From a virus, in the UHGV virus genome UHGV-2163177: a stretch of DNA of 15,118 bases; one strand, given 5' to 3'. The notes beneath the pieces are model-generated. The model had not been told where the DNA came from. It saw only the letters and a list, made by a program, of their open reading frames with translations, and did no database searches. Of the stretch, positions 1,386-14,974 are shown piece after piece; positions within the stretch are counted from its first letter, which is position 1; each line of letters begins with the position of its first letter. The translations under genes and the position numbers were made by a program.

Positions 1386-1406
1386 GTTACTCAATATTCT
1401 GAATCT
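1386..1406. repeat. attL core: 21-bp direct repeat gttactcaatattctgaatct
   Basis: Identical 21-mer at 14954..14974; identity breaks on both sides. The core is followed by its own inverted copy (ttactcaatat 1387-1397 / atattgagtaa 1409-1419). Confidence 0.75.
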
Positions 1407-1528
1407 ATATATTGAGTAAATGCATCAATAGCCTATGGTTTATGGATTTTTAGTAATGATATTTTTCTTTGGGTTCACCCATGTGTACACCTAAATCATG
1501 AGTGCTATTGAGACCAATTAACACCTCA

Positions 1529-3517
1529 TTAGTTGTTAACTTGTACTTGTTCACAAGAAATATATCCCTGTCGTTTGTGTCTTCTCGCATGAGGAAATGC
1601 CAGTCTTATTTTTCCGGATCTTACTAATGGAACGAGCTGTTTTTCTCGTAGGTTCTGTGGTGTTCGGGCCATTAACTTTGCAATAACACTAAGCGGCATA
1701 TAATGGCCTGAGCAAAGCTTAAGTATGATTTCGTCCATGGTTTCGTTGGAAAGTCGTTTCTTTTCTCTGGCTAATGCAGATATGTCTTCTAACCGTTGCC
1801 TTAAGGTTGGTGAAAGGCACTCAAGGTTATCCACATAAGGAAAAGGTAGTTTCTCGGTTATAAAACGACCTAAAGCATCTCGTTCTTTTTCGTTATCCGT
1901 GATCAATTCTTCGTTATCCGTGATCAAATTATCGCTATCCGTGATGATTTGAGCTTCGTTTGCGAATGAGTTGTCTGTTGATAACGGATTTACACCAAAA
2001 ACTTCCTCTGGAGATGGAAGATCCTGCCCCGGTAATGTATATGATTTATTCCTCTTCTCACCATGAGGGACTAAGAATCCGCCGCTTACAAGGCGGGGTA
2101 AGGCTAAAGTTACCTCACGAGAGTGAAGGCTAGTTAGTTGACAAGCCCGTTCATGGTCAATCCACTTTTCTACGGCTGCAGTTATAACAATACTGCGCTC
2201 AAGCTCACTGAGATGGTCTACTTTGTCGCCAAATTTTGTATGGAGAAGATTGGCAATTTCTTCTGATACGAGGTTGCCAATAGATAGCTCCAAAAGTGTT
2301 TGTTCTGGTTCTGTTTTTTCATATAGCCTTGGCATACGCCAGTTAGCCCATTTCCAGCCACTAAATATTTTAGGGATCCCTGAGCCTGATCGTTCACCAG
2401 CACCAATAATTAAAAACATTTGATGCATCAGTCGGTTTCGACAATCGCTTTCATATCCTTTGATTGCTTGTTCTGGTGGCACGCGCATCAAACCTGGATT
2501 ACGGAAGCCAAATAGATCTGGTCGTTTCACAACCATGATGGAGATTCGTCCAGTATAATCGGCATGAACTAAGGTATTTACCAGCGCTTCACGCAATGCT
2601 GTGTGTATCTGAGTATCGTCCTGTCGGATACCTTCTTTAAGCTCAAAAGGGACTTTTAAGTCAGCAATTAGTTTTCGATAGGTTCGTCTGTAAAAGTCAA
2701 ACACGTTACCTGACCAAGTCCCATCGGGACATAGTCTATCTACCCATCTTCTTTCAGTTCTTGCTTCAGGGCGTTCTTGGTAATCCACAAAATAATTTGG
2801 GGCTACATCTTGTATCGCTTCCCATGTTCCAAACATGAGAATGCCAGCTAAGGTCATGCCTTCCAAACCTGTTTGCCGGTCTTTTCTATATCCCCCAATA
2901 CTTCGTAGGAAAGCAAAGTTATCTAGTTCGAGAGCTGGATGTGTCGGGTTTGAAGCAGATAGTAGATTTCTGTAAGCCAACAAGCTTTCTAGGTTAATAT
3001 CGTTCATGTCGAAGTTTTGTACGATACGGTTGTCGCGGCTTTCTTCAACCTGTTCGGCCATCATGCGACGAACTTGTTCTTCTGAACAACGATGATCACC
3101 GTCGTGCATACGAAACCATGTTTCTGACATGGGTTGATTATTCAAATAAACAGGTTTCTGTTCTCGTCGTGCGATTGGTATTTCAATGACAAGAATATCC
3201 TTTCCCTGTAAGGATACTGTTTGGACAGAGTTATTGGTAAGAAGATTAACGTTAACTTTTTTCTTGTTGCTCACGAGGTCGAAAAGCTGCTTTTTAACGG
3301 TATTTATATCTGAAATACCCGCAACGGAAAATTCCCCTTTTTTCTCTCTAATACCTAAAACCACATACCCACCACGGCAGTTTGCCATAGCACTATAGGT
3401 TGGCCAGAAATCATCAGGTAATTTACCTTGTCCGTCTTTCCCTTGAGCTAGCTTGAACTCTAGCTCTGCGGATTCCGAAAGTGCACGCAAGTCGCTAAGG
3501 TCAGATATTAGGAACAC
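1529..3517 (-). CDS. AlbA_2 (Schlafen-like) N-terminal domain plus HATPase_c_4-like ATPase domain protein, 662 aa; often mis-annotated as RecG-like helicase or transcriptional regulator
   Basis: Long ORF with GTG start 4 nt after a GGAGGA SD. N-terminal ESAELEFK motif is typical of AlbA_2; central ALREALVNTLVHADY motif is typical of HATPase_c_4. Domains read by eye. Confidence 0.75.
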   Translation of the reverse strand: MFLISDLSDLRALSESAELEFKLAQGKDGQGKLPDDFWPTYSAMANCRGGYVVLGIREKKGEFSVAGISDINTVKKQLFDLVSNKKKVNVNLLTNNSVQTVSLQGKDILVIEIPIARREQKPVYLNNQPMSETWFRMHDGDHRCSEEQVRRMMAEQVEESRDNRIVQNFDMNDINLESLLAYRNLLSASNPTHPALELDNFAFLRSIGGYRKDRQTGLEGMTLAGILMFGTWEAIQDVAPNYFVDYQERPEARTERRWVDRLCPDGTWSGNVFDFYRRTYRKLIADLKVPFELKEGIRQDDTQIHTALREALVNTLVHADYTGRISIMVVKRPDLFGFRNPGLMRVPPEQAIKGYESDCRNRLMHQMFLIIGAGERSGSGIPKIFSGWKWANWRMPRLYEKTEPEQTLLELSIGNLVSEEIANLLHTKFGDKVDHLSELERSIVITAAVEKWIDHERACQLTSLHSREVTLALPRLVSGGFLVPHGEKRNKSYTLPGQDLPSPEEVFGVNPLSTDNSFANEAQIITDSDNLITDNEELITDNEKERDALGRFITEKLPFPYVDNLECLSPTLRQRLEDISALAREKKRLSNETMDEIILKLCSGHYMPLSVIAKLMARTPQNLREKQLVPLVRSGKIRLAFPHARRHKRQGYISCEQVQVNN
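1890..1952. repeat. Three tandem copies of a 21-bp unit (tcgttatccgtgatcaa...) inside the 1529..3517 CDS, in frame
   Basis: Units at 1890-1910, 1911-1931, 1932-1952; the first 16 nt are identical in units 1 and 2. Encodes heptad-like ITDSDNL/ITDNEEL/ITDNEKE. Confidence 0.85.
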
Positions 3518-3801
3518 AGTTCCTCCATATGAAACTTATGGGTATAAATTTTTCACATTTTACTCTAGTTTAAGTGGTAGGAAAGAACATGAAAGGTTAT
3601 TAAAACGTTGATAACACTGATACCTGTACGTTTGAACAGGGTATTGAATAGTCAGTATGTTGCTCTGCTATGAAATGCTTTATTCGTTATGATCCTTATT
3701 TATCCACAATGATTTTCTAGTTGTCCGTGATGAAGGTTAGATAGGAATCACAGATAATTGGTAGGAGGGGCTATTATATCGGCATCATGCCCACCAGCTA
3801 C

Positions 3802-3824
3802 AAAAAAGCCTTGCCCGTAGGCTT
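3802..3824 (-). terminator. Rho-independent terminator downstream of the small ORF 3864..4043
   Basis: Stem aagcct/aggctt with 7-nt loop (3806-3824), followed on the minus strand by a U-run (plus-strand A-run 3802-3807). Confidence 0.5.
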
Positions 3825-3863
3825 AATGTTTGGCTTGAATATCGGCTTACTGTAACGCCTCGC

Positions 3864-4043
3864 TCACCGTCGCGGCCTGTCCGGTTTCTTCCACTGATAC
3901 GGCCTCACATCATCCTGCTGGTGGCGTTCCTGTTGCAGCACAACGGAAACAGGCGCTGAACACCTGTTAATTTTTCTTGCAGGTTGTTTGATTCCGGCAA
4001 TGCTGCGGATCATCTCCAGCAAATCGGCTTCGGTGATGGTCAT
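3864..4043 (-). CDS. Hypothetical small protein, 59 aa (MTITEADLLEMIRSIAGIKQ...), below the ORF-track length cutoff
   Basis: ATG at 4043 preceded by AAGGTG SD with 6-nt spacing; terminator hairpin about 40 nt past the stop; translated by hand. Confidence 0.45.
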   Translation of the reverse strand: MTITEADLLEMIRSIAGIKQPARKINRCSAPVSVVLQQERHQQDDVRPYQWKKPDRPRR

Positions 4044-4075
4044 GATTTACACCTTAGGAAATCTTAGGTGGCTGG

Positions 4076-4341
4076 TTGACACTTTCCAGCTTAAGACCTT
4101 AACAAACCTTAACATCGCAGGTTGACACACTTGACACTTTTTCGCGAAAAACCTTAACAAAACTTAACCACCCCTGGCATTTCTAAGCATGGCAACTTGA
4201 CACTTTTCGCGATTTTTTCGGTTTTTTGACGTGGTGAATATGGTACAAGGCCAGTAATGGCGCGGCTTCTAGCGAGGTTGACACTTTTTCGCGTTCAGAG
4301 TGTAAAGTGTCAACCTGGCAAGCTGCTCAACTTGACACTTT
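4076..4341. repeat. Iteron array: five direct copies plus one truncated and one inverted copy of TTGACAC(TTT), several extended to TTGACACTTTTTCGCG, interleaved with ACCTTAACA-type repeats
   Basis: Full copies start at 4076, 4131, 4197, 4278, 4332; truncated ttgacac at 4122; inverted copy at 4305-4315; ccttaaca repeats at 4095-4118 and 4149-4170. Lies between the small ORF and the HTH gene. Confidence 0.8.
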
Positions 4342-4347
4342 TTGATG

Positions 4348-4875
4348 TCATTGATGGTCTGATTTTTCCCATTCAGCCAGGGCGTTTAGCCCGGCTTCAC
4401 TCCATGATTCCAGTTCATCGGGATAATCACCTGCAACATAGCAGAGTTCGCAACGCAGCATACGAATTGCCAGCCTGGCATTACCTCGCAAATTGTATTT
4501 TTCAAAGTAATGCTGCCCTTCATCATCCTCAAGGCAGATAGCACCATCATCAAGAAAGTGCACTTCCCAGCCTAATTCCCCGGCTGCATACAGCACACGC
4601 TGCTGTATGTCATCGTCCGTTACTGGCGAAGGAATTTTACCGTCTCTGGCCTTAACTGCTTTCCAGAACTCGCCCCACGTCATTTCCAGCGTTCTTTCTG
4701 GCCACATTTCAGAAACGGTGTCTTTCCCTTGTGCCGGTGGGCTGTTCCGCTGCTCTGTCGCCTCCACATCAATTTTTTTGCCAGACATGATCACTTCGCC
4801 TTTCTCGATCCAGTCGTAAACTGTCTGGCGGCTTACGCCTTTGTATTTGGCGTATTCGGCTTTACTCATCAACAT
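4348..4875 (-). CDS. Putative HTH DNA-binding protein, 175 aa (N-terminal KYKGVSRQTVYDWIEKGEV helix-turn-helix)
   Basis: ORF 4348..4884; start placed at the ATG with GAGGTGA SD 5 nt upstream (the track start is a GTG three codons earlier). Confidence 0.65.
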   Translation of the reverse strand: MLMSKAEYAKYKGVSRQTVYDWIEKGEVIMSGKKIDVEATEQRNSPPAQGKDTVSEMWPERTLEMTWGEFWKAVKARDGKIPSPVTDDDIQQRVLYAAGELGWEVHFLDDGAICLEDDEGQHYFEKYNLRGNARLAIRMLRCELCYVAGDYPDELESWSEAGLNALAEWEKSDHQ

Positions 4876-4974
4876 GTAGCTCACCTCATGCGTATACGAT
4901 AAAAAATAATTTCATGCGGAAAGGGAATGCGTTGTGGGTATGGAGGAAAGGGGCAATAACCGCCCCTTACTGAT

Positions 4975-5247
4975 TCAGTTGCGCCAGGATGGCTGGCTAA
5001 GCGTGGTTTTCATTACATCATTGACGACCTGTTTTACGATTTCTGTGTTGGCAGTCGTGCTTTCAACATCAACAAAGCCATAATCGCCAATTTCCACCGT
5101 CAGGGATTCCAGTTTCTTCCCTAGAGCATCAGGCAACTCTCCACTGAACCGGTGCTGAAGATTTTCCACCAGCAACGCCCTGAATGCCTCGCTGTTCTCT
5201 TTTTTCTGCCATAGCTGGCGTTTATCCACTCTGATATTTAATTTCAC
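4975..5247 (-). CDS. Hypothetical protein, 90 aa
   Basis: GTG start overlapping the stop of the upstream gene (GTGA), preceded by AGAGGTGA SD. Confidence 0.5.
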   Translation of the reverse strand: MKLNIRVDKRQLWQKKENSEAFRALLVENLQHRFSGELPDALGKKLESLTVEIGDYGFVDVESTTANTEIVKQVVNDVMKTTLSQPSWRN

Positions 5248-5411
5248 AGTCTCACCTCTTTAAGTGCCTTATCCATCAGTTGCCGGGCGATAACATGAAT
5301 CGACGGTGCCACACCAAGCACAGATTTCTGACGCTCTTCGTCCTGGATGCGTTGCAGGGCTTCGATCTGCCTCCGGGAAAGTAAAACTGGCTTTACTCCG
5401 TGACCTTTCAT
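5244..5411 (-). CDS. Hypothetical small protein, 55 aa (MKGHGVKPVLLSRRQIEALQR...), possible small regulator
   Basis: Internal ATG of ORF 5244..5480 with GGGAG SD 7 nt upstream; the longer N-terminal extension has no SD. Confidence 0.45.
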   Translation of the reverse strand: MKGHGVKPVLLSRRQIEALQRIQDEERQKSVLGVAPSIHVIARQLMDKALKEVRL

Positions 5412-5521
5412 GATTTTTCTCCCGAATAATAACAACCACAACAATTGCACAAAATGAAATGATAGCAATAAATGTTGCAATTAATGAAACACAATAAGGC
5501 CGGGAAAAATCCCGGCCTCCG

Positions 5522-5809
5522 TCACTGACTGCAATTTTTCGATCCAGGGTATTTCCTGAATGCCTTACCATTGGGCTGATGTAATCCCATTCCGGCATGT
5601 GCCCGGCTGATGGTTTCGCGCATCTCCCCGAAATTATCCTGCCTTGCTGGTGGGCGTGCTGCCTTGTGGATACATTCCGCGCGACGTTTTGCCGCCTGTT
5701 CCCGTGCCTTGTCATCATTCGCCAGCATAATGACCTCAGCCCACCGCGCCGCCGCTCTCCGGTACAGACCACGCGCTTCCAGTGCTTCCGCTTTGCTGTC
5801 GTGAATCAT
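5522..5809 (-). CDS. PerC-family transcriptional regulator-like protein, 95 aa
   Basis: N-terminal AEALEARGLYRRAAARWAEV resembles the PerC/Pch family signature (from memory); start overlaps the stop of the upstream ProQ/FinO-like gene (ATGA). Confidence 0.55.
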   Translation of the reverse strand: MIHDSKAEALEARGLYRRAAARWAEVIMLANDDKAREQAAKRRAECIHKAARPPARQDNFGEMRETISRAHAGMGLHQPNGKAFRKYPGSKNCSQ

Positions 5810-6336
5810 GCGCTTGTTTTCTCCTTTGCTGCCCGGCGCTGACGTTTGCGCTTCTCATTCAGCGCCACCAGCCGCGTTTCTGCGTCCTGTTGTTCCTGTG
5901 GTGTCACCTCGCCGCACGGCTGGCCTTTCAGGTCGTAACGCGCCCCACCAGCAACCAGGGCGCGGTAATAGCGCGGAGACTGCGCATAAGATGCCAGCGT
6001 CGCACGTAATGCCCCTGGCCCAAATGCCAGCCCCCTGACGGCGAGATCCTGCATCAGGTCGTCGAATATCCCCACCTTAAGCGGCTTCGGTGCTTCCCGG
6101 CTGAATAAGTCAGGCCACAACTCAGTGAGGCGGTTAACGCGCCTGCGGTTTTTGCGCTGGCGTTTGGTCATATGCCGCCACGGTGTCGCCCCTGTGGGCT
6201 TCTGCTGCGCGTTCTGATTACCGGGCATCACTTTATATGCCGATGTGGTTTTATCCTGCTGTTGCGTCTCCTGTACCATTTTTGTGGCATACCGTAATTT
6301 CTGTTGATGGTCAGCTTTTCCATGTGTACTTTTCAT
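5806..6336 (-). CDS. ProQ/FinO-family RNA-binding protein, up to 176 aa (start uncertain)
   Basis: LTELWPDLF...KPLKVGIFDDL...LRATLASYAQSPRYYRAL...RYDLKGQPCGE matches the conserved ProQ/FinO N-terminal domain pattern. None of the candidate ATGs has a strong SD. Confidence 0.75.
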   Translation of the reverse strand: MKSTHGKADHQQKLRYATKMVQETQQQDKTTSAYKVMPGNQNAQQKPTGATPWRHMTKRQRKNRRRVNRLTELWPDLFSREAPKPLKVGIFDDLMQDLAVRGLAFGPGALRATLASYAQSPRYYRALVAGGARYDLKGQPCGEVTPQEQQDAETRLVALNEKRKRQRRAAKEKTSA

Positions 6337-6415
6337 CGATATTATCCGTATTATCGTCGTTCCTTTTGATGGCTTATTTCTATAGAAATTTCTTTATTGC
6401 TTATTGCCCAGATAA

Positions 6416-6742
6416 TTAACTGACTATTAGTGCTTTAATACTCAGGTACGCAGAAAGAATAACACCAATAAAAGAAGGGTACAGCAGAATCCCAAACAAA
6501 AACTTCATGTACTTATGTTTTCCTGTCACTTCGTTAATAACAGATATTATACTCAACATACATAATGCAATACTTATAGTTGCAATAAATGCAATAGTAA
6601 GCAAGATGAAATATCTTACACCTGTTTGAGAAGATAAATTTGCAATTATACCTATCATAACGAGACTCTGTATAATCCCGAAAGACAAAGCACCAGAAGA
6701 CTTTTCCACTATTTCACTAAATTTCTTCACAAAGTAAATCAT
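6416..6742 (-). CDS. Small hydrophobic membrane protein, 108 aa, about 3 predicted TM segments, AT-rich
   Basis: ATG at 6742 with AAGGTGA SD 6 nt upstream; hydrophobic stretches throughout; visibly lower GC than flanking genes. Confidence 0.6.
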   Translation of the reverse strand: MIYFVKKFSEIVEKSSGALSFGIIQSLVMIGIIANLSSQTGVRYFILLTIAFIATISIALCMLSIISVINEVTGKHKYMKFLFGILLYPSFIGVILSAYLSIKALIVS

Positions 6743-6819
6743 ATATATCACCTTTATATAACGCTATGCTAAGGTTTATTTATACGATATCCCCAAATGG
6801 TATTCCATCACCGTACGGA

Positions 6820-7038
6820 TCACTCTGCTGGCCTTTTTTGCCGCCCGGCCGCACCGTTCGCGCACTGATTACGCTGTCTGCGATAACCAGACCAGCCACG
6901 TTTCGCCGTTCCGTCATCTGCCAGGCTGCGCGGAAGGGGAACTGCCATACTCGCCATTGCCATTGGTGTTCCCTTGCTGGTGGTTTTTGAGTGCAGATCA
7001 GCCACCTGCCGCCCGTAAGCGGATATTTGTACCGTCAT
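6820..7038 (-). CDS. Hypothetical protein, 72 aa
   Basis: ATG with GGAGAG SD 9 nt upstream; same orientation as neighbours. Confidence 0.35.
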   Translation of the reverse strand: MTVQISAYGRQVADLHSKTTSKGTPMAMASMAVPLPRSLADDGTAKRGWSGYRRQRNQCANGAAGRQKRPAE

Positions 7039-7235
7039 GCTGTTTGCTCTCCGGTTTTAACGTTGATGATTGTCACCTGTTCAGCTTCGGCAATCTCCCG
7101 TTCTGTCAGCGTGGCAAAGTTTGCCGCTGCCGTTGTCATGAATGCGCTTATCAGTTCGGGATGTACTTTCGCGTATCCTTCCCCGGCGTTGCGGTCGATA
7201 ATTTTTATCGCCCCCCTCAGCCTGTGTTCTGTCAA
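7035..7235 (-). CDS. Hypothetical protein, 66 aa, start uncertain (TTG, no SD)
   Basis: ORF only; weak translation signals. Kept because the alternative plus-strand ORFs look less protein-like. Confidence 0.25.
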   Translation of the reverse strand: MTEHRLRGAIKIIDRNAGEGYAKVHPELISAFMTTAAANFATLTEREIAEAEQVTIINVKTGEQTA

Positions 7236-7324
7236 ATCAAGGGCGTGAGATTGTGTTTTTTGTGTGTTTCGTTGTCACAGCCTTTACCTCACAGCAATAA
7301 AATAAAATTTTTGCATTTTAACCC

Positions 7325-7552
7325 TTCACCTGTTCACCTTTTTCCGTTTCTCCTTTTAATTCATTGTGTTAAGGGGTGAACAGTTTCACAAAAACTATTC
7401 ACCAACTGTTCACCACTGTTCACCCTTAAAGCTCAACAAATAATCAAAAAGGTGAACAGTGAATAGTTTGATGAACAGTTCATGAATAACTGTTCACCCT
7501 ATAACCAACTGATATAGAACACATTTATTACAGGGTGAACAGTGATGAACAG
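7325..7552. repeat. P4-type 'type I' iteron array: about ten copies of TGTTCACC or close variants in both orientations; putative replication origin (ori/crr-like)
   Basis: Perfect octamers at 7331, 7407, 7417, 7491 (direct) and 7375, 7451, 7535 (inverse), plus variants tattcacc, gtgaatag, atgaacag. Immediately downstream of the helicase gene. Confidence 0.8.
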
Positions 7553-7565
7553 TTATTCCATAAGT

Positions 7566-9380
7566 TTAATTTTTGCCATCGTCATTTGTGACCGATGCAC
7601 ATGAGGGCATCCAGTCTTCTGAATCCTCTGTCAGTATCACGTTTGAACGCAAGCCATGCTTCGTTTTCCGTTTCATATACTCCCTGCCGTATTCCGCCAT
7701 TGCCCCTGGCATATCCTTACCGAAGCGTGTCAGTGTTACGGGCTTACCGAATCCGTGTGCCCTCATATACGCCAGATAGGCGTGATAGAGATACCTGCGC
7801 GGGCTGAACGGAATAATTTCAGCATTACCCACTAACAGGCCATCGCACATTACCGACGACATGAGATAGCCGCAGAAGTCCACCAGCGAATCGCCCTCGC
7901 GTTTTATCACCAAGGCTTCTTCTGATTTCTGCTGCTCATATAGCAGGCGTTTAGCTTCGTCCTGGTCAGAAAAGCGTGTAAGCAGGTGGCGAATCACTAC
8001 CGCCAGCTCTCCTTCTATTTTTTCAGCCAGCATAGGGTCACGTTCGTTCTCCGGTACAACTTCCGAAAAATTGAATATTACCCGACGACGTGATATCCCA
8101 CCGCTGCGGTCACTGAATGACATGGCGTTATTGTTCACCGCCAGCACGACCGCCTGAATGCGTGTTGAGTAGGGGGCTTTATGTTTCGGGTCGATTGCCA
8201 CCTTATCACCGCCTGTAATGGCCTTAATCCCTGCACCATCACCAGCGTAACGGGTCATATCCGGCATGATAATCAGCGAAAAGCCAACCACTAACGCACG
8301 TTCCCTGGCATCTTCCAGCGCCTTCATGCTTGCCGATACCGTGTTGGCCTTACCCGCCAGCATAGTGCAAATCTCCGCCATTACGCTTTTACCGCTTCCA
8401 CCCGGCCCCGTTACCTCAAGAAATAACTGCCAGTCGTACCGATTCGCCAGCACCATGAATAACGCCGCCAGTACGCGATCTGCCTTGCGGTCATTCTCAG
8501 CCACCGAACGGCGCAACCACTTCCAGAAATTCGGCGCATGTGTTGCCAGCGTTTCCCCCTCTGCTGGTGGGCTGAAAGGTAATTCACTGGCAATTAACAA
8601 CCAGTCGTTTTTGTTATGCTCCCGAAAATTACCAGTTCTGGTATCAAATACCCCGTTACTGAATCCAATCAGGTTACGGGCTGTATTCCCCATTACGGGC
8701 AAACTTAACTTCATGGTATCGACCGCCGATTTGATGGCGTTCTGCGAATAGCTGATTTCCGCATCAATAAAAATCTGCGCCATAGCCCGCTGTAACTCTT
8801 TATCCTGTACCGGCTCCCATACAACACCGTTGTAGTGGTGAACGGTGTCAGAATCCGCATTGATTGCCAGTTCACCGCCATAATGTGCCAGGAGAACTTC
8901 GCCGCGCTGGCTTGCTCCCATCTGGTTAAGTGCCAGTGGTGTCGCGCTGTCTTCTGTTTTTTTCTTTGCCGGAAACCGGATAATCAGTCCGTCATCAATG
9001 TTTTTACGCTCACGGGCAAGGTATTCACGCCAGTTCTCACACTTCTGGCTGTGCATGCCATCAGGGTAATAATTCGCATTCTGTATACTTGCCGCCGCCA
9101 GCTTCTGACCAATTGCCTTAACCATTACAGGATCTAACTGTCCGGCTCTGAATATGCGCGCGGATGTGCGCCCATCAGGCACTATTTGCAGATTTCCGAT
9201 CTCTTTCAGTTGTTCATCAGCCAGCACAACAGGTGGCTCATTATCTCCAGCCATACGCGCATCGTGTTCCTGCCATTGTTTCGCGTGTGCCCAGGCATCA
9301 CTACCCGCGAAAATAATTACCTCTGTGTCTTTGTGTTTTATTCCGCGTGGCTGTTTTTTTACGTTCGGTGCCAGTTTCAT
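7566..9380 (-). CDS. P4-family primase/helicase-like protein, 604 aa (P4 alpha-like helicase and origin-binding region; the N-terminal primase domain appears to be missing)
   Basis: Walker A TGPGGSGKS; IKAITGGDKVAIDPKHKAPY...RRRVIFNFS matches the P4-family primase C-terminal (SF3 helicase) pattern; GGGGGG SD; start overlaps upstream stop. Confidence 0.85.
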   Translation of the reverse strand: MKLAPNVKKQPRGIKHKDTEVIIFAGSDAWAHAKQWQEHDARMAGDNEPPVVLADEQLKEIGNLQIVPDGRTSARIFRAGQLDPVMVKAIGQKLAAASIQNANYYPDGMHSQKCENWREYLARERKNIDDGLIIRFPAKKKTEDSATPLALNQMGASQRGEVLLAHYGGELAINADSDTVHHYNGVVWEPVQDKELQRAMAQIFIDAEISYSQNAIKSAVDTMKLSLPVMGNTARNLIGFSNGVFDTRTGNFREHNKNDWLLIASELPFSPPAEGETLATHAPNFWKWLRRSVAENDRKADRVLAALFMVLANRYDWQLFLEVTGPGGSGKSVMAEICTMLAGKANTVSASMKALEDARERALVVGFSLIIMPDMTRYAGDGAGIKAITGGDKVAIDPKHKAPYSTRIQAVVLAVNNNAMSFSDRSGGISRRRVIFNFSEVVPENERDPMLAEKIEGELAVVIRHLLTRFSDQDEAKRLLYEQQKSEEALVIKREGDSLVDFCGYLMSSVMCDGLLVGNAEIIPFSPRRYLYHAYLAYMRAHGFGKPVTLTRFGKDMPGAMAEYGREYMKRKTKHGLRSNVILTEDSEDWMPSCASVTNDDGKN

Positions 9381-9619
9381 TTTTTCCCCCCTGCAACCAG
9401 CATTTCACGGATTTTGCGGATATAGCTTGCTGCACGTTTTTGATTTACGGCTTTATAATGGTCCACCAGCGTAAAATCACGGCGGTAGGTGATATTGCCT
9501 GGCGTAACGTGACGAATAACCACTCGTCCCCCACGTCTGGTGTCGCGGTAAATATCTCCGAGTCTGATTTCAGGCCGAGAGAGACCGCTGGCAGTAAAGC
9601 CAGAATTTTTCTTTTTCAT
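9377..9619 (-). CDS. Hypothetical protein, 80 aa
   Basis: ORF in the operon; its stop overlaps the helicase start codon. Confidence 0.45.
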   Translation of the reverse strand: MKKKNSGFTASGLSRPEIRLGDIYRDTRRGGRVVIRHVTPGNITYRRDFTLVDHYKAVNQKRAASYIRKIREMLVAGGKK

Positions 9620-9623
9620 GGTT

Positions 9624-9824
9624 TTATTTTCCTGTCAGCAGTTCCGGTTTTATTTCCGCACGAATACAGAGTTCAGAAAAAAATTCAGGAGAACCAACAA
9701 TCTCATTACTTTTCAGTCGGCATTGTGATTTCACTTTCCCTTTATCCAGGTAAACCAGTACGCGTCCGGTGAAATCATCTGGCACATTAAGCACTACGGG
9801 TACATGCGCTTCATGATTATGCAT
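9624..9824 (-). CDS. Hypothetical protein, 66 aa
   Basis: ATG with GGAGG SD; overlaps the end of the upstream gene by 8 nt. Confidence 0.5.
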   Translation of the reverse strand: MHNHEAHVPVVLNVPDDFTGRVLVYLDKGKVKSQCRLKSNEIVGSPEFFSELCIRAEIKPELLTGK

Positions 9825-10050
9825 GGCTTACATCCTCCGTGAATTTTCTTCTGTAACGCGCCTCTGCCACATATTCCGCATAGTCCGACGCAATACTAAG
9901 AATCATTTCACCCTCTGACTTGTAGCCACTGGTATTGATAAGAAAATATGCAGCTTTCATCATGTCAGCAACGCTCAACAATGCGCCCGCTGCATCTTCC
10001 GGTGCGCCATCAAATTCCCGTTTCAGGGAATTAAAACGATCATCACGCAT
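9817..10050 (-). CDS. Hypothetical protein, 77 aa
   Basis: Internal ATG at 10050 with GGGGGG SD; the longer form in the ORF track lacks an SD. Confidence 0.5.
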   Translation of the reverse strand: MRDDRFNSLKREFDGAPEDAAGALLSVADMMKAAYFLINTSGYKSEGEMILSIASDYAEYVAEARYRRKFTEDVSHA

Positions 10051-10052
10051 GT

Positions 10053-10409
10053 TTACCCCCCCTGAATGACCTGATAACCGCAACTGGTCAGCAATTCGAT
10101 AAATTCCGGCAGTGTGCCGAAACAGCAATCATCACGCAGACGTTCGCGGGATACTTCAACGCCGTTTTCGTAGTGACTCACCATGCGTCCGGTAAAATGC
10201 AGATCATCATCGTGATGGCACGTTAACGGCTTAATCAGTCGCGCACGTTCTGCCAGTTCCAGCAATGCTTCAACGCTTCCGGCAATTGCACCATCCGGCA
10301 GGTGATAATTACTTACCACGCGTCCATTCTCCACGTTGACCAGTAGCTGCCCGGAAAATATCTCGTCAAACTGAATGCTGTTAAGGTCAGAAATTGACAG
10401 GTTATGCAT
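10053..10409 (-). CDS. Hypothetical protein, 118 aa
   Basis: ATG at 10409 with AGGAGG SD at 6-nt spacing. Confidence 0.55.
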   Translation of the reverse strand: MHNLSISDLNSIQFDEIFSGQLLVNVENGRVVSNYHLPDGAIAGSVEALLELAERARLIKPLTCHHDDDLHFTGRMVSHYENGVEVSRERLRDDCCFGTLPEFIELLTSCGYQVIQGG

Positions 10410-10626
10410 GGTGCACCTCCTGCACATCAGCCATGATAATTTTTCCGGCCTTATCCAGTGCCTGATCGGCTTTTAGCTGCACAAATGCTAAATAATGGGA
10501 GATGCATTCTGATTCTCTGGCTGCGTGTTTATGCGCCACACCAGCGATAGCAGAAATCTCAATAAGTGAATCCATCAGCGTTTTGATAGCGTCTACCGCT
10601 GCATCAGGCCATGTTGCATTACACAT
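10402..10626 (-). CDS. Hypothetical protein, 74 aa
   Basis: ATG at 10626 with AGGAGG SD at 6-nt spacing; overlaps the downstream gene start. Confidence 0.5.
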   Translation of the reverse strand: MCNATWPDAAVDAIKTLMDSLIEISAIAGVAHKHAARESECISHYLAFVQLKADQALDKAGKIIMADVQEVHHA

Positions 10627-10822
10627 GTTCCACCTCCTGGCGAATGCGGGCAGCGAATACCATCACGCAGCCATCAGGAGATTGCTGGCGTGCTTCCTGT
10701 TCGCTGGTGGCCTCGATGTGAATTACACGCGGTTGTGCTGTGCTCAGGGCGATAAAACGCCAGATATATTTATTCAGGTTGTGCGAGTCCCGCCCTTGCG
10801 GGTGTGTGGTATGATTTCTCAT
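10619..10822 (-). CDS. Hypothetical protein, 67 aa; first gene of the leftward operon
   Basis: C-terminal part of track ORF 10619..11470; ATG at 10822 with GAGG SD. The rest of the long ORF runs across the divergent promoter and the opposite-strand RHH gene. Confidence 0.45.
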   Translation of the reverse strand: MRNHTTHPQGRDSHNLNKYIWRFIALSTAQPRVIHIEATSEQEARQQSPDGCVMVFAARIRQEVEHV

Positions 10823-10903
10823 AGCTACCTCGATACTTCTGCTATCGTTGGTGGTTAGACGCCCTGCATGTGTTGCGAGCACTGCGGGGCGTTGCTCTTT
10901 CAG

Positions 10904-10949
10904 GTGTATTTCACCTTTGCTTTTTAATTTACTCACTGGTGAAATACAC
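10904..10949. promoter_or_regulatory. Putative operator: perfect 12-bp inverted repeat gtgtatttcacc / ggtgaaatacac with 22-bp spacer, in the divergent promoter region
   Basis: Arms at 10904-10915 and 10938-10949; a leftward -35-like TTGAAG overlaps the right arm; a rightward -10-like TATACT lies near 10981. Confidence 0.5.
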
Positions 10950-11015
10950 TTCAAGCCTTTTTTTATCATTTTTTTTGCGTATACTGACATACACCAATTT
11001 TTAGGAGATCCAGAA

Positions 11016-11195
11016 ATGGCAACTGGTGCAAAGAACGCAAAATCACAAATGACAACTGTCAGAATCCCACATGAAGTAATGGATGATATTGAGCAACTTA
11101 AAGAACCTGGCGAAAGTACCGCTGGTTTTTTAGTTACTGCCGCAAAAGGCGAGATCAAACGCCGCCAGCGGCGCAAGGCCAAAGAACAGGAGTAG
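11016..11195 (+). CDS. Small ribbon-helix-helix-like DNA-binding protein, 59 aa (candidate element repressor)
   Basis: ATG with AGGAG SD; TTVRIPHEVMDDIEQL resembles an RHH beta-strand/helix start; basic C-terminal tail; only supported plus-strand gene in the element. Confidence 0.5.
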   Translation: MATGAKNAKSQMTTVRIPHEVMDDIEQLKEPGESTAGFLVTAAKGEIKRRQRRKAKEQE

Positions 11196-11462
11196 TTGAT
11201 TAGCGCCGGGCGCCCAGAAAAAATCGTATCAGTCGCGCCACCAGCAAAATTTTTTGCTTTCCGGACGGCGTGGCCAACGGCATTTTGCAGCAAAATATTC
11301 TGCATTTCTGGCGTACTGTGGCGACGGTGATCAGCGCCTTCACATTGAACGAACTTGTCGCTAAAATTCACCCATATAGCAAACATCGCGGTGCTGTAGG
11401 TAATTCGTTCACAAAGGCGCTCCGGCAACGGGGCGCTTTCTCTTTTTGTAACGGTCAGAGCG

Positions 11463-12263
11463 TTACACATGGCTGTTTTCCTCCATGCGACGGGCTAACC
11501 AACGCTGCGAAAGGCGAATTAATTCCGCTTTCCGCTGGTGGTAGTCCTGGCCTAACTCAATCAGCGTGATATTGCTCTGCTCAAGGTAAGAAAGGTGCTC
11601 AAGCTGCAACGTGCTCATGTGGTCGCGTGGTTCGCCTGTAATGCCGTTCGCCTGTGCCCACTGTTTTGCAGTCATGCCACCCAGCACGATACGCGCCAGC
11701 ATATTGGCTTCCGTGGTGTAGTGGTGCTGGAACGTGTTTTTACCCAGTTCAGCCCGGTACGCCTCCAGCGCGGCACACATCGGCTTAAAGTAGCTGGCAA
11801 CGGTGATACGGGCTTTCAGTTCCCGGCGTAACGCTGCGGAACGCACTGGCGCTACCTTGTGTAGCTCCTCCTCGCATTTGATGAAGTACTGACGAACGGC
11901 ACGGCCCTGTTCGGTGCGTTCGACCATCGCCAGTTCTTTTGCCATGTTCACGGTGATGATGTACTCAAGAGCTGTTTGCTGGCGAGATTTTGCGCTCACC
12001 GGATCGGGTCGGCTCAAATATTCAACAACCTCATAATCCACGCCTTCCGTGAAGCCGTATTCTTCAATGCGCCCCTTGATCCACGAACGGAAAACGCGCC
12101 CTACACCTAACGCCTTATGCAACGCTCTGGCACTAACAATATTGGTTTCACGCCCGCCAATAACGCCGGAAATAACCGGGATAATTTCACCAAAATTTTG
12201 CAGATTCTGGTTTTCAGGCCGAACGAAGCCCTGCCCCTGTACGGGCGTTTTTGGAAATTTCAT
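11463..12263 (-). CDS. Phage antirepressor, AntA/AntB N-terminal domain family, 266 aa
   Basis: NIVSARALHKALGVGRVFRSWIKGRIEEYGFTEGVDY matches the AntA/AntB pattern; AGGAG SD 7 nt upstream of the ATG. Confidence 0.75.
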   Translation of the reverse strand: MKFPKTPVQGQGFVRPENQNLQNFGEIIPVISGVIGGRETNIVSARALHKALGVGRVFRSWIKGRIEEYGFTEGVDYEVVEYLSRPDPVSAKSRQQTALEYIITVNMAKELAMVERTEQGRAVRQYFIKCEEELHKVAPVRSAALRRELKARITVASYFKPMCAALEAYRAELGKNTFQHHYTTEANMLARIVLGGMTAKQWAQANGITGEPRDHMSTLQLEHLSYLEQSNITLIELGQDYHQRKAELIRLSQRWLARRMEENSHV

Positions 12264-12342
12264 AAAAAACTCCTGCTATCGAATCTGGTTAATTGCTGTT
12301 TGATGGTGGATAGCTGGGGCGCCTGGTCCCGTAGCTGTTTTA

Positions 12343-12561
12343 TCAGGCTGATGTGTTTCGGCGTTCTTCCAGCCAGCGATTAATCTCTACCGCATCGAAT
12401 GCAGTGCTTTTCTCACCCAGTTTGATGGGCTTAGGCATCTTCCCGCTACGTACCCAACGATCGAGCGTTGATAAGCTGGTACCCAGCAATTCAGCCAGGC
12501 GATAGCGGCGGATATAGCCAGTTGCAGGGATTGCGGTTTGAAGTATTGGTTGGTTTTTCAT
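12343..12561 (-). CDS. AlpA-family transcriptional regulator/excisionase-like protein, 72 aa (start may be 12570)
   Basis: YIRRYRLAELLGTSLSTLDRWVRSGKMPKPIKLGEKSTAFDAVEINRWL is the typical AlpA/Vis HTH pattern; the N-terminal extension in the ORF track is unlikely. Confidence 0.7.
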   Translation of the reverse strand: MKNQPILQTAIPATGYIRRYRLAELLGTSLSTLDRWVRSGKMPKPIKLGEKSTAFDAVEINRWLEERRNTSA

Positions 12562-12673
12562 ATGCCCCATTACCTTTGTTGTTGGTTTGTGATTTGTAAT
12601 AGGGGCATTAAATAACAAATGAAATGATGTGTGTGTGAGTTTTAGAAAAAACACTGTGACTTTTCTTATTTCA

Positions 12674-13456
12674 CTATCTAAAACGCTCTCGCCAGCTTTT
12701 CCAAGTGTTCTTATCTGGTTGTGGGATTACAATGCCTTTTTGAGCACCTATTTGTGCAATTTTTTTATTTAACTTGTTAGGCGGCAAAGATATTATCTCA
12801 TTGTCTGTTAACCCGGCAATTCTTAATAATCCATATATCATTTTAAATTGATGTATTGTTAATCTTGGTAACTTGTGATTTTCTTTTTTTATAGTGTTGT
12901 TTATGGAGTAAATTGGAAATCCATTTGTTATTGATTTATAAAGGTTGTCAATGTGCTCTCTGGTTATTAATAATGAATCAGGTGTAATCTTAATGTTGCC
13001 GCTTGTTTTTGCATGGCATGAAAAAATAAATGTGGGATTCGCAGTGCGACGTGAAAGCGGTATGGATGTATTCATAGAGATAGTTTTGTTTCTTACTATA
13101 GTCTCTTGAATATCAAAAACTCCAGAAACCTTTGCCTCAAAAATAACACCATTTTCTTTTATTTCATCACTATATTCATGAATAATTATGCCAAGAGAGG
13201 AAATTTCTTTTTTGATGAGAAAAGAAATAAAATCAATATAGTCTTCATCCTTTGGCCATGTAAAATCACGATAACCAAAATACCCCTCACAGTAAGCATT
13301 TTTTATTTTTGTGGCAAAATTAATTCTGTTAATATCCTGCCAATGCCATAAATCATCTATTTCACATTCTAAAATTTGAGCTGCTCTATCTAAAGAGCAG
13401 AATTCTAATGGAGGTAATTGTTTTTTTTGCCATATTGTTTCATTAATATTTGTCAT
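12674..13456 (-). CDS. Hypothetical protein, 260 aa, strongly AT-rich orphan between int and the alpA-like gene
   Basis: Long uninterrupted ORF with A/T-biased codons (Ile/Asn/Lys-rich); no family recognised by eye; weak SD. Confidence 0.6.
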   Translation of the reverse strand: MTNINETIWQKKQLPPLEFCSLDRAAQILECEIDDLWHWQDINRINFATKIKNAYCEGYFGYRDFTWPKDEDYIDFISFLIKKEISSLGIIIHEYSDEIKENGVIFEAKVSGVFDIQETIVRNKTISMNTSIPLSRRTANPTFIFSCHAKTSGNIKITPDSLLITREHIDNLYKSITNGFPIYSINNTIKKENHKLPRLTIHQFKMIYGLLRIAGLTDNEIISLPPNKLNKKIAQIGAQKGIVIPQPDKNTWKSWRERFR

Positions 13457-13512
13457 GATTGCACTACCGTTATGAAAAAATATATTCGTTAATGAATTAG
13501 CCTTAATGTCTA

Positions 13513-14766
13513 TTATTTATTAGATTGCGTGATGTCAGAACATATCATGTTTTCTAAATTCACCAGCAAATCAGTCCATTGTGCTAGTGCCGCTTTGCGC
13601 TCATCAAAATATTGATGGCGGTTATAAATGCCCTCTACGCCTTTTATGCGGTGGTTAAGGCATCGTTCAGCAACGATCGGGTCAACTCCCAATGCTGCTA
13701 AATGTGTTCGTGCTGTTCGCCGGAAGTCGTGAATTGTAAAGTTGGGGACGTTCGGCATTTCTGCTCTGACTTTTGCCAATGCAACAGGAAGGGTGCTTTC
13801 CTGGATGTGAGGGATCATTCTGTGCTGCATTTTTCTGGCAGGTAATACCCATGCGCTATTGCATGAAAATGTATGCAATTCTCGCAACCATTCTATAGCC
13901 GCTGGTGGCAATGGTATGTCGATAGCATCACCATTTTTAGTTCGTTGTTCTGGTAGATGCCAAATCGCGCCATCTAAGTCGAATTCATCCCACTTGGCGG
14001 CGCATAATTCCATTTTTCTGACACACAACGCCAGGAGCAACTTAAAGGTTAATTCGTTCTGGCGGCTGAATCCTTTGGCTTTACGCATTGCCTGAAAAAA
14101 TTGGATTAATTCGTCCCGGTTCAGCCAACGATCACGAGATAATTCTTTCCCACCAGCATCTGAAACTTCGAAAGCTGAGCAGGGGTTAACTTCCAAAGCA
14201 AGGCGTTTAATACCGTAGTCAAATATGCGACGTGTCCAGCGAAGAACGTCAGTAGCAATTGTTGGAGCGCCTCTATCAACAATACTTTTAAGCATAGCAT
14301 CAATATGGCGTGGTTTTACATCTTCAACCTTCATGTGGCCTATGGCTGGATTTATGTCTTTATCAATGCGCCTACGGAGAATATCTGGGTGTTTCCACCG
14401 GGGAAGTATTTGCCGTTCAAAGTATTCGGCGGCAAGTTCAGAAACGTGCAGCGCGTTTTTTTCGGCTTCTATTTTTGCCAGTGCTTCGGCTTTACGCTGC
14501 TGTTTTTCTGCGGCTACGTCATATCCCAAAGCAACTCGTGCGGAAAGTTCTTTTGCCCGTTCCCTCGCTTTTGATAACGATAATTCAGAATATGAACCAA
14601 TAAGCATGGCACGAGATTTTCCTGCTAGTTTATATCGAAACCGCCAGGTAGGGGATCTATCCACCTCTCTATACCGGAGATATAGCCCACCACCATCAGC
14701 ACGACCTTCGAAATGTTCTCCGGCTTTTATCCATGCGCGGATCTGCATATCTGTGAGTTTTGGCAT
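13513..14766 (-). CDS. int: Tyrosine integrase, P4-type (IntA/IntS-like), 417 aa
   Basis: N-terminal arm-binding-type domain (GGGLYLRYREV...WRFRYK); C-terminal catalytic region with HDFRRTARTHL and conserved Tyr region; located just inside attR. Confidence 0.9.
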   Translation of the reverse strand: MPKLTDMQIRAWIKAGEHFEGRADGGGLYLRYREVDRSPTWRFRYKLAGKSRAMLIGSYSELSLSKARERAKELSARVALGYDVAAEKQQRKAEALAKIEAEKNALHVSELAAEYFERQILPRWKHPDILRRRIDKDINPAIGHMKVEDVKPRHIDAMLKSIVDRGAPTIATDVLRWTRRIFDYGIKRLALEVNPCSAFEVSDAGGKELSRDRWLNRDELIQFFQAMRKAKGFSRQNELTFKLLLALCVRKMELCAAKWDEFDLDGAIWHLPEQRTKNGDAIDIPLPPAAIEWLRELHTFSCNSAWVLPARKMQHRMIPHIQESTLPVALAKVRAEMPNVPNFTIHDFRRTARTHLAALGVDPIVAERCLNHRIKGVEGIYNRHQYFDERKAALAQWTDLLVNLENMICSDITQSNK

Positions 14767-14793
14767 TTTCGTGTATCCAGACGTTGAAAACTT

Positions 14794-14848
14794 GGTGTAC
14801 CCAAACGTTTGGACTTAAAGCGTGATGTGTACACCTTTGGGTACACTG
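14794..14848. promoter_or_regulatory. Cluster of short palindromes/repeats upstream of int (ccaaacgtttgg, gtgtacac, tttgggtacac); candidate Int arm-type or regulatory sites
   Basis: 12-bp palindrome at 14801-14812, 8-bp palindrome at 14828-14835. The 12-mer atgtgtacacct (14825-14836) recurs at 1481-1492 at the other end of the element. Confidence 0.4.
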
Positions 14849-14891
14849 TTATCATGCGCTTTAGTCGTTCCTTATGAGTGTTCATGATAAC

Positions 14892-14914
14892 AAAAAAGCC
14901 CGAAAAAATCGGGC
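14892..14914 (-). terminator. Rho-independent terminator carried by the element, now sitting just downstream of yicC
   Basis: Stem gcccga/tcgggc with 5-nt loop (14898-14914), followed on the minus strand by a 6-U run (plus-strand A-run 14892-14897). Confidence 0.6.
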
Positions 14915-14953
14915 CTTTAAGTGTTTGGGATTTTTGATGAAAGTCAATAAATC

Positions 14954-14974
14954 GTTACTCAATATTCTGAATCT
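14954..14974. repeat. attR core: 21-bp direct repeat gttactcaatattctgaatct overlapping the yicC stop codon
   Basis: Identical to 1386..1406; encodes the last yicC codons (...QIQNIE-stop) on the minus strand. Confidence 0.75.

Follow-up and report, generated by a model that had tools for sequence, protein, structure and literature searches.

The 15,118-nucleotide sequence of the virus genome UHGV-2163177, referred to here as a whole as the window, carries on its minus strand a gene for a 662-amino-acid (662-aa) protein in which a Schlafen nuclease domain is followed by a GHKL ATPase and two winged helix-turn-helix (wHTH) domains. We consider it moderately probable that this protein is an ATP-gated Schlafen tRNase that acts in phage defence or abortive infection. 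The 662-aa open reading frame (ORF) pointed out in a preliminary description of the window, made from the letters alone, is uninterrupted, and RefSeq gives the identical frame (WP_000478740.1, "RNA-binding domain-containing protein," 662 aa), an accession that was not found in any paper in a literature search. The sequence GGAGG lies immediately 5' of the GTG start, which is consistent with the N-termini of 45 homologues. Both motifs singled out in that description are present, ESAELEFK at aa 15 to 22 and the central motif REALVNTLVHADY at aa 309 to 321, and the GC content is indeed lower than that of the surrounding core genes (42.4% versus 48.6% for the island core). The gene and the region upstream of it are laid out as follows.

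1529-3517, minus strand: Schlafen-GHKL-wHTH gene, 662 aa, GTG start (ORF, Pfam, RefSeq and structure model)
3518-3863, minus strand: upstream spacer, 346 bp, AT-rich (38% GC), which presumably must contain the gene's own promoter
3806-3824, minus strand: terminator-like hairpin and T-run, 3' of a conserved 59-aa island ORF, ending the upstream operon

The gene was also said to have no partner, and this agrees with its surroundings: behind the hairpin the spacer is empty, with zero minus-strand ORFs of at least 20 aa, and an Rfam search around the gene gave nothing at gathering score (a single chance-level snoRNA match, E 0.75, lies within the coding region). Since a strict sigma-70 scan of the gene's strand found no consensus promoter, we can only infer that a promoter is there. 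In the window, the gene thus has the layout of an autonomous, single-gene transcription unit.

The protein can be divided into six segments.

3068-3517, minus strand: single-lobe Schlafen/AlbA_2 nuclease domain, aa 1-150, with E15-x4-E20-x-K22 and a SAMAN box at aa 42-46 (Pfam, profile and Foldseek)
2618-3067, minus strand: alpha/beta connector, aa 151-300, well modelled and part of the supradomain named Schlatpase (see below)
2273-2617, minus strand: GHKL (Bergerat-fold) ATPase core, aa 301-415 (HATPase_c_4, Foldseek and invariant residues)
2027-2272, minus strand: first wHTH domain, MarR/BlaI/AspA-like, aa 416-497 (profile matches to AspA, BlaI, MarR and AdcR; MarR-type by Foldseek)
1880-2026, minus strand: low-complexity heptad-repeat linker, aa 498-546 (ITDSDNL / ITDNEEL / ITDN)
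1532-1879, minus strand: second winged-helix domain, distantly Fic-like_C, aa 547-662 (confident region of the first model; Pfam match in a homologue)

The architecture proposed in the preliminary description, AlbA_2 plus HATPase_c_4, was borne out. In a Pfam search SLFN_AlbA_2 was clear (aa 15 to 144, E 1.7e-12, 48.3 bits against a cut-off of 25.3), HATPase_c_4 reached 26.7 bits against a cut-off of 26 when aa 146 to 412 were scanned alone, and both folds were confirmed by the structure model and Foldseek. The catalytic signature Ex4(E/D)xK is present as E15-SAEL-E20-F-K22, and the Schlafen box as S42-A-M-A-N46 followed by GGYVVLG. The GHKL core has its N-box at E310/N314, H318/D320, a G1-like element at N340/G342 and a glycine-rich lid from G372 to G380. 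We aligned 76 homologues, reaching down to 27% identity via Gram-positive relatives, and found E15, E20, K22, N46, G50, G55, E310, N314, H318, N340, G342, G378 and G380 to be invariant; E58, a candidate third acidic residue, is conserved in at least 90% of them. A profile built from these sequences matched human and rodent Schlafens (SLFN14, SLFN8/13, SLFN12, SLFN5 and SLFN11) precisely at positions 7 to 65, where the catalytic motif and the Schlafen box lie, and winged helices of the MarR/BlaI/AspA type at positions 405 to 500.

Structure prediction was done with AlphaFold2 (AF2), on monomers only. A first model, from 46 close homologues, was unusable in the GHKL region, where the predicted local distance difference test (pLDDT) was below 50, but a second model of aa 1 to 500, from the 76 diverse sequences, had a pLDDT of 85 and a predicted template modelling score of 0.69. 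Its best Foldseek match in the PDB was DIP2311 of Corynebacterium diphtheriae (3lmm, E 2e-21), which has the same three-part layout. The search for a Schlafen-type nuclease fold, suggested at the outset, returned 2kyy (2.7e-7), SLFN12 (1.5e-4), SLFN11 (5.4e-4) and SLFN13 (7e-4), and the other matches were PDK2/PDK4, histidine-kinase CA domains and MarR-type wHTH proteins. The connector, aa 151 to 300, matched the SLFN-pAgo and Aga PNTD models of PADLOC as well as 3lmm. Judged from alignment and model together, the Schlafen active-site motif and fold are intact, and so is the nucleotide site of the GHKL domain.

The C-terminal part is more particular to this protein. The second wHTH domain has the helix and strand order typical of the fold, with a pLDDT of 80 to 90 in the first AF2 model, and the aligned region of a 63%-identical homologue (P0058) matched PF21247 (Fic-like_C, a winged helix) with an E value of 2.1e-8. 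A whole-model fold search with the first model added nothing on this domain, and a PADLOC search with the C-terminal 250 aa gave zero matches. With the last 118 aa as the query, phmmer found 641 matches among 1.84 billion representatives, nearly all of them the same family or fragments of it and the few others tandem-wHTH proteins; by this search the domain is almost confined to this protein family. A link to SoFic was not used as evidence: behind it stood no more than a SoFic match of the first wHTH domain of a Streptococcus protein and the homologues' weak match to PF21247.

The linker is encoded by a 21-bp tandem repeat at 1889 to 1945 (Tandem Repeats Finder: period 21, 2.7 copies). Across orthologues it occurs in 2 to 8 copies with a clade-specific sequence, so that the feature is conserved and the sequence is not: (I)ITDNxxL in close relatives from the Enterobacterales, LTH(N/S)xxx in the Vibrio/Salmonella type, SSEHxxx, SSGSxxx or TSEHSQP in Pseudomonas and Betaproteobacteria, and NLTDNTN in eight copies in Gallibacterium. 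Such a linker could be a tether, a decoy or an element whose length is tunable by slippage. A clade-specific heptad-repeat tether of variable copy number looks unreported.

Proteins with this architecture are a known class. Of 5,930 prokaryotic Schlafens catalogued by Perez Taboada et al. (Nat Microbiol 2026; PMC13056530), the commonest fusions are HisKinase (34.0%) and HisKinase-HTH (19.2%); catalysis depends on the Ex4(E/D)xK motif, and defence by Schlafen fusions works through tRNA cleavage triggered by phage. A DUF262 fusion and an Ig-like fusion protected E. coli in that study, the Ig-like one being a tRNase activated by a phage protein. Kuzmenko et al. (bioRxiv 10.64898/2026.05.29.728809) gave the name "Schlatpase" to the supradomain of Schlafen plus PF13749, which makes up 58.6% of 103,533 Schlafen proteins; most Schlatpases carry only a C-terminal HTH, and the modules also occur fused to the S subunit of type I restriction enzymes. 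By motifs and model, the 662-aa protein belongs to the pSlfn HisKinase-HTH class, or Schlatpase supradomain, with a second wHTH domain. It has in common with the class an N-terminal PF04326 domain with Ex4(E/D)xK, followed by a His-kinase-clan ATPase and an HTH, the single-gene format and the context of defence islands and mobile elements; E15 and E20 are at the same positions as E15 and D20 of RorSlfn5. It differs from the class by the second wHTH domain and the heptad-repeat linker, and in the proven pSlfns RorSlfn5 and EcoSlfn7 the partner is Ig-like or DUF262 instead of GHKL-wHTH. Thus, when the preliminary description called the protein not assignable to a named system, it was right in that PADLOC, run as it had proposed, produced partial weak matches and no named system, but the architecture as such does have a name.

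The SLFN-pAgo protein RzAgo also has a Schlafen domain followed by a PF13749 GHKL domain, with an ExxxN N-box (E314/N318, corresponding to E310/N314 of the 662-aa protein) and a box of the SAFAN type defined by Kuzmenko et al. (bioRxiv 10.64898/2026.05.29.728809). In RzAgo, binding of ATP to the GHKL domain leads to a tetramer in which single lobes pair into a bilobed, tRNA-cutting nuclease; ATP-driven tetramerisation and tRNA cleavage were demonstrated for RzAgo only. The PADLOC SLFN-pAgo model aligns to aa 38 to 344 with no more than model positions 58 to 356 of 1121, and the 662-aa protein has two wHTH domains after the ATPase instead of an Argonaute PAZ/MID/PIWI core. DIP2311 has the same AlbA_2-GHKL-wHTH layout over its full length, but both 3lmm and 2kyy are structural-genomics entries without assigned function and are 15 to 29% identical to our protein. 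Mammalian SLFN11/12/13/14 share the homologous nuclease lobe, the catalytic motif and the principle of an ATPase-coupled antiviral tRNase; they differ in having a bilobed N-domain and a superfamily 1 (SF1) helicase-type ATPase, in place of the single lobe and the GHKL domain of the 662-aa protein.

The gene resides on a mobile element. The window matches the E. coli chromosome end to end, with at least 99.6% identity, in 8 of 5426 complete genomes, including that of the asymptomatic-bacteriuria strain ABU 83972, in whose annotation the order is yicG, dinD, the island and yicC. An exact 21-bp direct repeat, GTTACTCAATATTCTGAATCT, is present at 1386 to 1406 and at 14954 to 14974, and from the positions of these repeats the mobile element extends over 13.6 kb, from about 1386 to 14974.

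1386-1406, no strand: attachment (att) core repeat at the integrase-distal end, exact 21-bp repeat
14954-14974, no strand: integrase-proximal copy of the att core repeat, which overlaps yicC at its 3' end
13513-14766, minus strand: tyrosine integrase (Pfam Arm-DNA-bind_3, Phage_int_M and Phage_integrase)
12343-12654, minus strand: AlpA-family regulator (Phage_AlpA, E 1.8e-8; the RefSeq product is shorter, 72 aa)
7566-9380, minus strand: P4-family primase/D5 helicase, the island's replication gene (D5_N, DUF5906 and Pox_D5; TIGR01613)

Other products of the island are AntA-like, Icd-like, PerC and ProQ/FinO-like proteins and a 178-aa protein with a TerS/excisionase-like HTH; no phage structural genes were found in it by Pfam, NCBIfam and further profile scans. 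Phage-inducible chromosomal islands (PICIs) of Gram-negative bacteria are defined by an integrase, AlpA and a primase/replication module in about 10 to 15 kb of att-flanked DNA without structural genes. Integrase, AlpA and primase are here combined in one att-flanked island without structural genes, which we take to be a PICI-like satellite. The Schlafen-ATPase gene is the last gene of the island, and its stop codon lies 122 bp from the integrase-distal att copy. It therefore occupies the terminal cargo position assigned to it in the preliminary description, although not beside attL: in the lambda convention the integrase-distal end would be attR. A second correction concerns the 278-aa ORF to the left (342 to 1178), which is chromosomal dinD (NF008573, E 1.8e-152) and does not belong to the island.

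At the same yicC site, three related islands, likewise flanked by perfect or imperfect copies of the att repeat, keep the 59-aa ORF and the repeat and have no Schlafen gene. In its place they carry a divergently oriented pair of genes for a DUF3800 protein and a 161-aa protein (L002 2138-3330; also in L003 and L004), which matches the PADLOC candidate system PDC-M04A/B with E values of 6.6e-98 and 1.2e-73. Because the sister islands hold PDC-M04 there, the position is a variable cargo slot in which candidate defence modules are exchanged. The defence hotspots of P4-like elements and PICIs (Rousset 2022 and Fillol-Salom 2022, cited in PMC13056530) are likewise variable cargo slots at an island end, and here too the slot swaps unrelated candidates, the Schlafen-ATPase gene and PDC-M04. 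Gene plus spacer were found in the same 8 of the 5426 complete E. coli genomes and always in this island.

How relatives of the gene are placed in other genomes bears directly on its role. One genome per species was scanned, and 80 full-length orthologues of 45 to 90% identity were collected from Gamma- and Betaproteobacteria and a few other lineages; their neighbours were called with a local ORF caller and iterative hidden Markov models (HMMs) seeded by the Pfam-annotated hsdR, hsdM and hsdS of one Vibrio locus. A type I hsd gene lies within four genes at 43 of the 80 loci (at least 54%) and a co-directional one within two genes at 38, numbers that are lower bounds because the ORF caller was crude and the HMMs came from one hsd family. 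The order hsdM-hsdS-slfn-hsdR recurs, directly at about 10 loci and with an intervening ORF at others; in most cases the genes are close together, spaced by -4 to about 150 nt. One locus with this order (L041) contains HsdM_N/N6_Mtase, Methylase_S and HSDR_N/SWI2_SNF2/T1RH-like_C domains by Pfam, and the same gene order is seen in the RefSeq annotation of the Pseudoalteromonas plasmid pMEGA. RecBCD is a complex of DNA-level immunity and repair that phages commonly inhibit. Five of the 80 orthologues lie in or beside recBCD, with the order recC-slfn-recB-recD in two Pseudomonas species (confirmed by Pfam) and recB-recD-slfn in another locus (L071); recBCD-linked orthologues occur in Pseudomonas, Stenotrophomonas and others. 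Hence, that the gene stands alone is true of the window but atypical of the family, and the hsd linkage of the orthologues points to a back-up or guard role over a purely autonomous one.

A guard role can be pictured after PrrC, the NTPase-regulated tRNA nuclease of the E. coli prr locus, whose gene lies between hsdS and hsdR, where about half of the Schlatpase-wHTH orthologues are found too. The linked type Ic enzyme keeps PrrC silent until the T4 protein Stp activates it (PMC1484252). The protein from the window might in the same way sit silently, in trans, on a type I complex or RecBCD of the host and be freed when a phage inhibitor disables the complex. We regard this as unlikely on the whole, yet worth serious weight, and give the same limited credence to its possible triggers, the anti-restriction proteins Ocr, Stp and ArdA and the anti-RecBCD proteins Gam and gp5.9; with these triggers it would be a special case of the defence reading. 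In its favour are the prrC-like position, the recBCD-linked orthologues, the fusion of Schlatpase modules to a type I S subunit and the role as back-up suicidal effectors proposed for the proteins with Schlafen, minimal His-kinase and wHTH that are linked to loci of the bacteriophage exclusion (BREX) system in at least 1017 taxa (PMC12839542, 2026). But neither the window nor the other Enterobacterales copies examined have an hsd or rec gene linked to them, and ABU 83972 has no hsd gene within 5 kb; at 37 of the 80 loci no hsd neighbour was detected, so the protein evidently persists without a cognate partner. Moreover, physical association with a restriction complex is hypothetical, and membership in the operon may merely reflect the clustering of defence islands. 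The folds of PrrC, an ABC-type NTPase and an ACNase domain of its own, are unrelated to Schlafen and GHKL, and no PrrC/RloC domain was matched in the 662-aa protein with Pfam, NCBIfam or PADLOC; the comparison is therefore an analogy of logic, not of membership. Rather doubtful, too, is the wider generalization that Schlatpase-wHTH proteins are a widespread Schlafen counterpart of PrrC, latent tRNases guarding type I enzymes and in some lineages RecBCD or BREX, and set off once phage anti-restriction proteins disable these complexes. The E. coli copy would then be a portable guard able to join whichever resident complex it meets in a new host, and its tether would tune or mimic the interaction.

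Besides restriction-modification (R-M) operons, mobile elements are another setting. A tyrosine integrase adjoins 8 of the 80 orthologues. The gene of Yersinia pseudotuberculosis (88% identity) is the last one of a different satellite-like island and adjoins yicG, a Salmonella relative (63%) adjoins an integrase fragment, and in Vibrio parahaemolyticus (63%) the gene is cargo of a Tn7-like element, with hsdRMS immediately ahead of it and an AAA_15/AAA_21 ATPase behind it. In at least seven Streptococcus satellite phages a relative of about 30% identity lies directly beside the integrase, and homologues are borne on plasmids in Pantoea, Pseudoalteromonas and Burkholderia. The alternative raised in the preliminary description, that homologues are always chromosomal regulators and lie apart from mobile elements, therefore does not hold for the family. 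In Yersinia, Enterobacter and Buttiauxella, a terminal gene of 88 to 90% identity is found next to yicG/ligB without the att core of E. coli, and the backbones differ, with genes for a DUF927 primase, Terminase_2 and SocA_Panacea in Yersinia and an integrase directly upstream in Enterobacter. This suggests that the cargo gene moves between islands that use this neighbourhood of the chromosome.

With a carrier that has an integrase, AlpA, a primase and a TerS-like protein, and with homologues in Streptococcus satellites and the satellite-like island of Yersinia, the protein might instead serve the life cycle of the satellite and manipulate helper phage or host when the island is induced, for instance through a cleavage of tRNAs or transcripts that favours packaging. 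We consider this very improbable: the gene is optional cargo that sister islands with the same core replace by PDC-M04, a terminator separates it from the island operon, and the majority of orthologues are found not in satellites but in R-M operons or alone. The alternation with PDC-M04, the Tn7-like cargo, the satellites and the R-M operons support a role in conflict.

For a defence function we propose the following sequence of events. The gene would be expressed from its own promoter, apart from the island operon, as the upstream terminator and the 346-bp spacer suggest. Its N-terminal domain would be a single-lobe, metal-dependent Schlafen RNase, in line with the intact Ex4ExK motif. The GHKL domain's binding of ATP would drive the formation of a dimer or tetramer and so, by analogy to RzAgo, pair two lobes into a bilobed tRNA clamp. 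The tandem winged helices and the heptad-repeat tether might hold the enzyme off until a cue from the phage arrives, which could be foreign nucleic acid or an attack that disables immunity at the DNA level. Either the C-terminal wHTH pair would sense such a cue directly, or the protein would work in trans with resident host complexes. Cleavage of tRNA would then halt translation and abort the infection, and the clonal population and the island would be spared from non-helper phages. Because over half of the orthologues are in type I operons, the ancestral role was most likely that of a second-line effector behind restriction, and the E. coli copy is most likely an uncoupled, mobile version of such a back-up effector.

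Several observations weigh against this reading. On the whole protein, HATPase_c_4 (aa 337 to 402) scored 24.8 bits, below the cut-off of 26. NCBIfam had no match for the protein, and PADLOC-DB v2 (2023) had none over the full length, its partial weak SLFN-pAgo and Aga matches having E values of 1.7e-8 to 6.7e-5. Among the 641 matches to the last 118 aa there was no fusion to Fic or another effector that would point to a sensor. Oligomerisation and the tRNA target are borrowed, by analogy, from a distant relative with an Argonaute sensor that is absent here, and the literature contains no published phenotype for a stand-alone Schlatpase-wHTH protein. Two HisKinase-class genes were chosen by Perez Taboada et al. 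and seven of eight constructs survived, so that one or two Enterobacterales representatives were tested, and these were unprotective against that phage panel (PMC13056530). Of the single-protein antiviral effector envisaged in the preliminary description, the architecture and the cargo context, which fit a conflict role, stand, but defence by the class is still a matter of inference.

The null result in the heterologous host, together with the solitary position of a gene whose relatives are embedded in operons, would also suit an orphaned, inert passenger, one that was taken up from an R-M operon, cannot function in the absence of its partner and persists only by hitch-hiking. This is improbable in our view. 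The reading frame is intact with all its motifs, full-length orthologues of 88 to 90% identity hold the same terminal position by yicG in Yersinia, Enterobacter and Buttiauxella, and the copies in the 8 E. coli genomes are 99.9 to 100% identical.

A further point on the opposing side is that about a quarter of the orthologues are solitary among housekeeping genes, which fits non-immune roles. Twenty-two loci with full flanks carry none of the hsd, recBCD and integrase markers. The idea that other R-M types are hidden at the loci without hsd was rejected after ten neighbours at six of the 22 had been checked: eight housekeeping-type Pfam domains and one Fic/DOC were found, and two had no Pfam match. 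A Fic/DOC gene (L086 8838-9983) lies directly upstream of an orthologue, on the same strand with an 8-nt gap, and this pair of Fic/DOC and a protein with a Fic-like_C-type domain may be coincidence or a two-effector module. The solitary loci, the two wHTH domains resembling MarR/BlaI repressors and the historical names of homologues ("predicted HTH transcriptional regulator," "RecG-like") would all be in keeping with a DNA-binding transcriptional regulator, in which Schlafen and GHKL are ligand- or nucleic-acid-binding modules and not a toxic nuclease. However, the catalytic acids, the lysine, the N-box and the lid are invariant in 76 sequences, which is unexpected for a mere binding scaffold, and the distribution is sporadic and horizontally moved (8 of 5426 E. 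coli genomes, plasmids, Tn7-like elements and satellites); we consider a regulator highly improbable.

Other features of the window and its surroundings deserve mention. The chromosomal DinD matches the PADLOC candidate PDC-S13 (E 7.6e-125); a further match is to a model of the type I specificity subunit, over its N-terminal 267 positions. A homologue of it lies beside the Schlatpase gene of the Streptococcus satellite Javan416, two genes from the integrase (L013 3567-4415), and E. coli Z1323HEC0477 has no dinD at the yicG-yicC locus; DinD itself may perhaps be conflict-related cargo. At 4075 to 4340, in the spacer that separates the ORF of the TerS-like 178-aa protein from the conserved 59-aa ORF, the sequence AAGTGTCAAS occurs six times, against 0.07 expected by chance; five copies are on the minus strand and one is on the plus strand. 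These copies are likely a protein-binding array, for example a packaging site, an origin or an operator. Between integrase and alpA, a 260-aa ORF (12674 to 13456, minus strand, 31% GC) is conserved in the sister islands, and searches of Pfam, PADLOC, PHROGs and NCBIfam returned no match. It might be another accessory gene or else encode a repressor specific to the island. The ProQ/FinO-family ORF (5806 to 6336, minus strand) is intact in the window and annotated as frameshifted in ABU 83972, and a PerC-family activator is encoded directly downstream of it.

The family, the supradomain, the likely chemistry and the idea of a back-up effector are already in the literature of 2026. What is new is that a tractable strain, ABU 83972, naturally has a stand-alone copy in a defined cargo slot of a satellite, and a quantified linkage of the orthogroup to type I R-M and occasionally to recBCD, from which testable candidates for the trigger follow. 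Schlafen plus GHKL ATPase proteins account for more than half of the prokaryotic Schlafens. A stand-alone copy with close relatives in hsdM-hsdS-slfn-hsdR operons offers a handle on the question of whether such proteins act autonomously or as a back-up to restriction, and the same pairing bears on what activates a Schlafen tRNase, a question shared with the human proteins.

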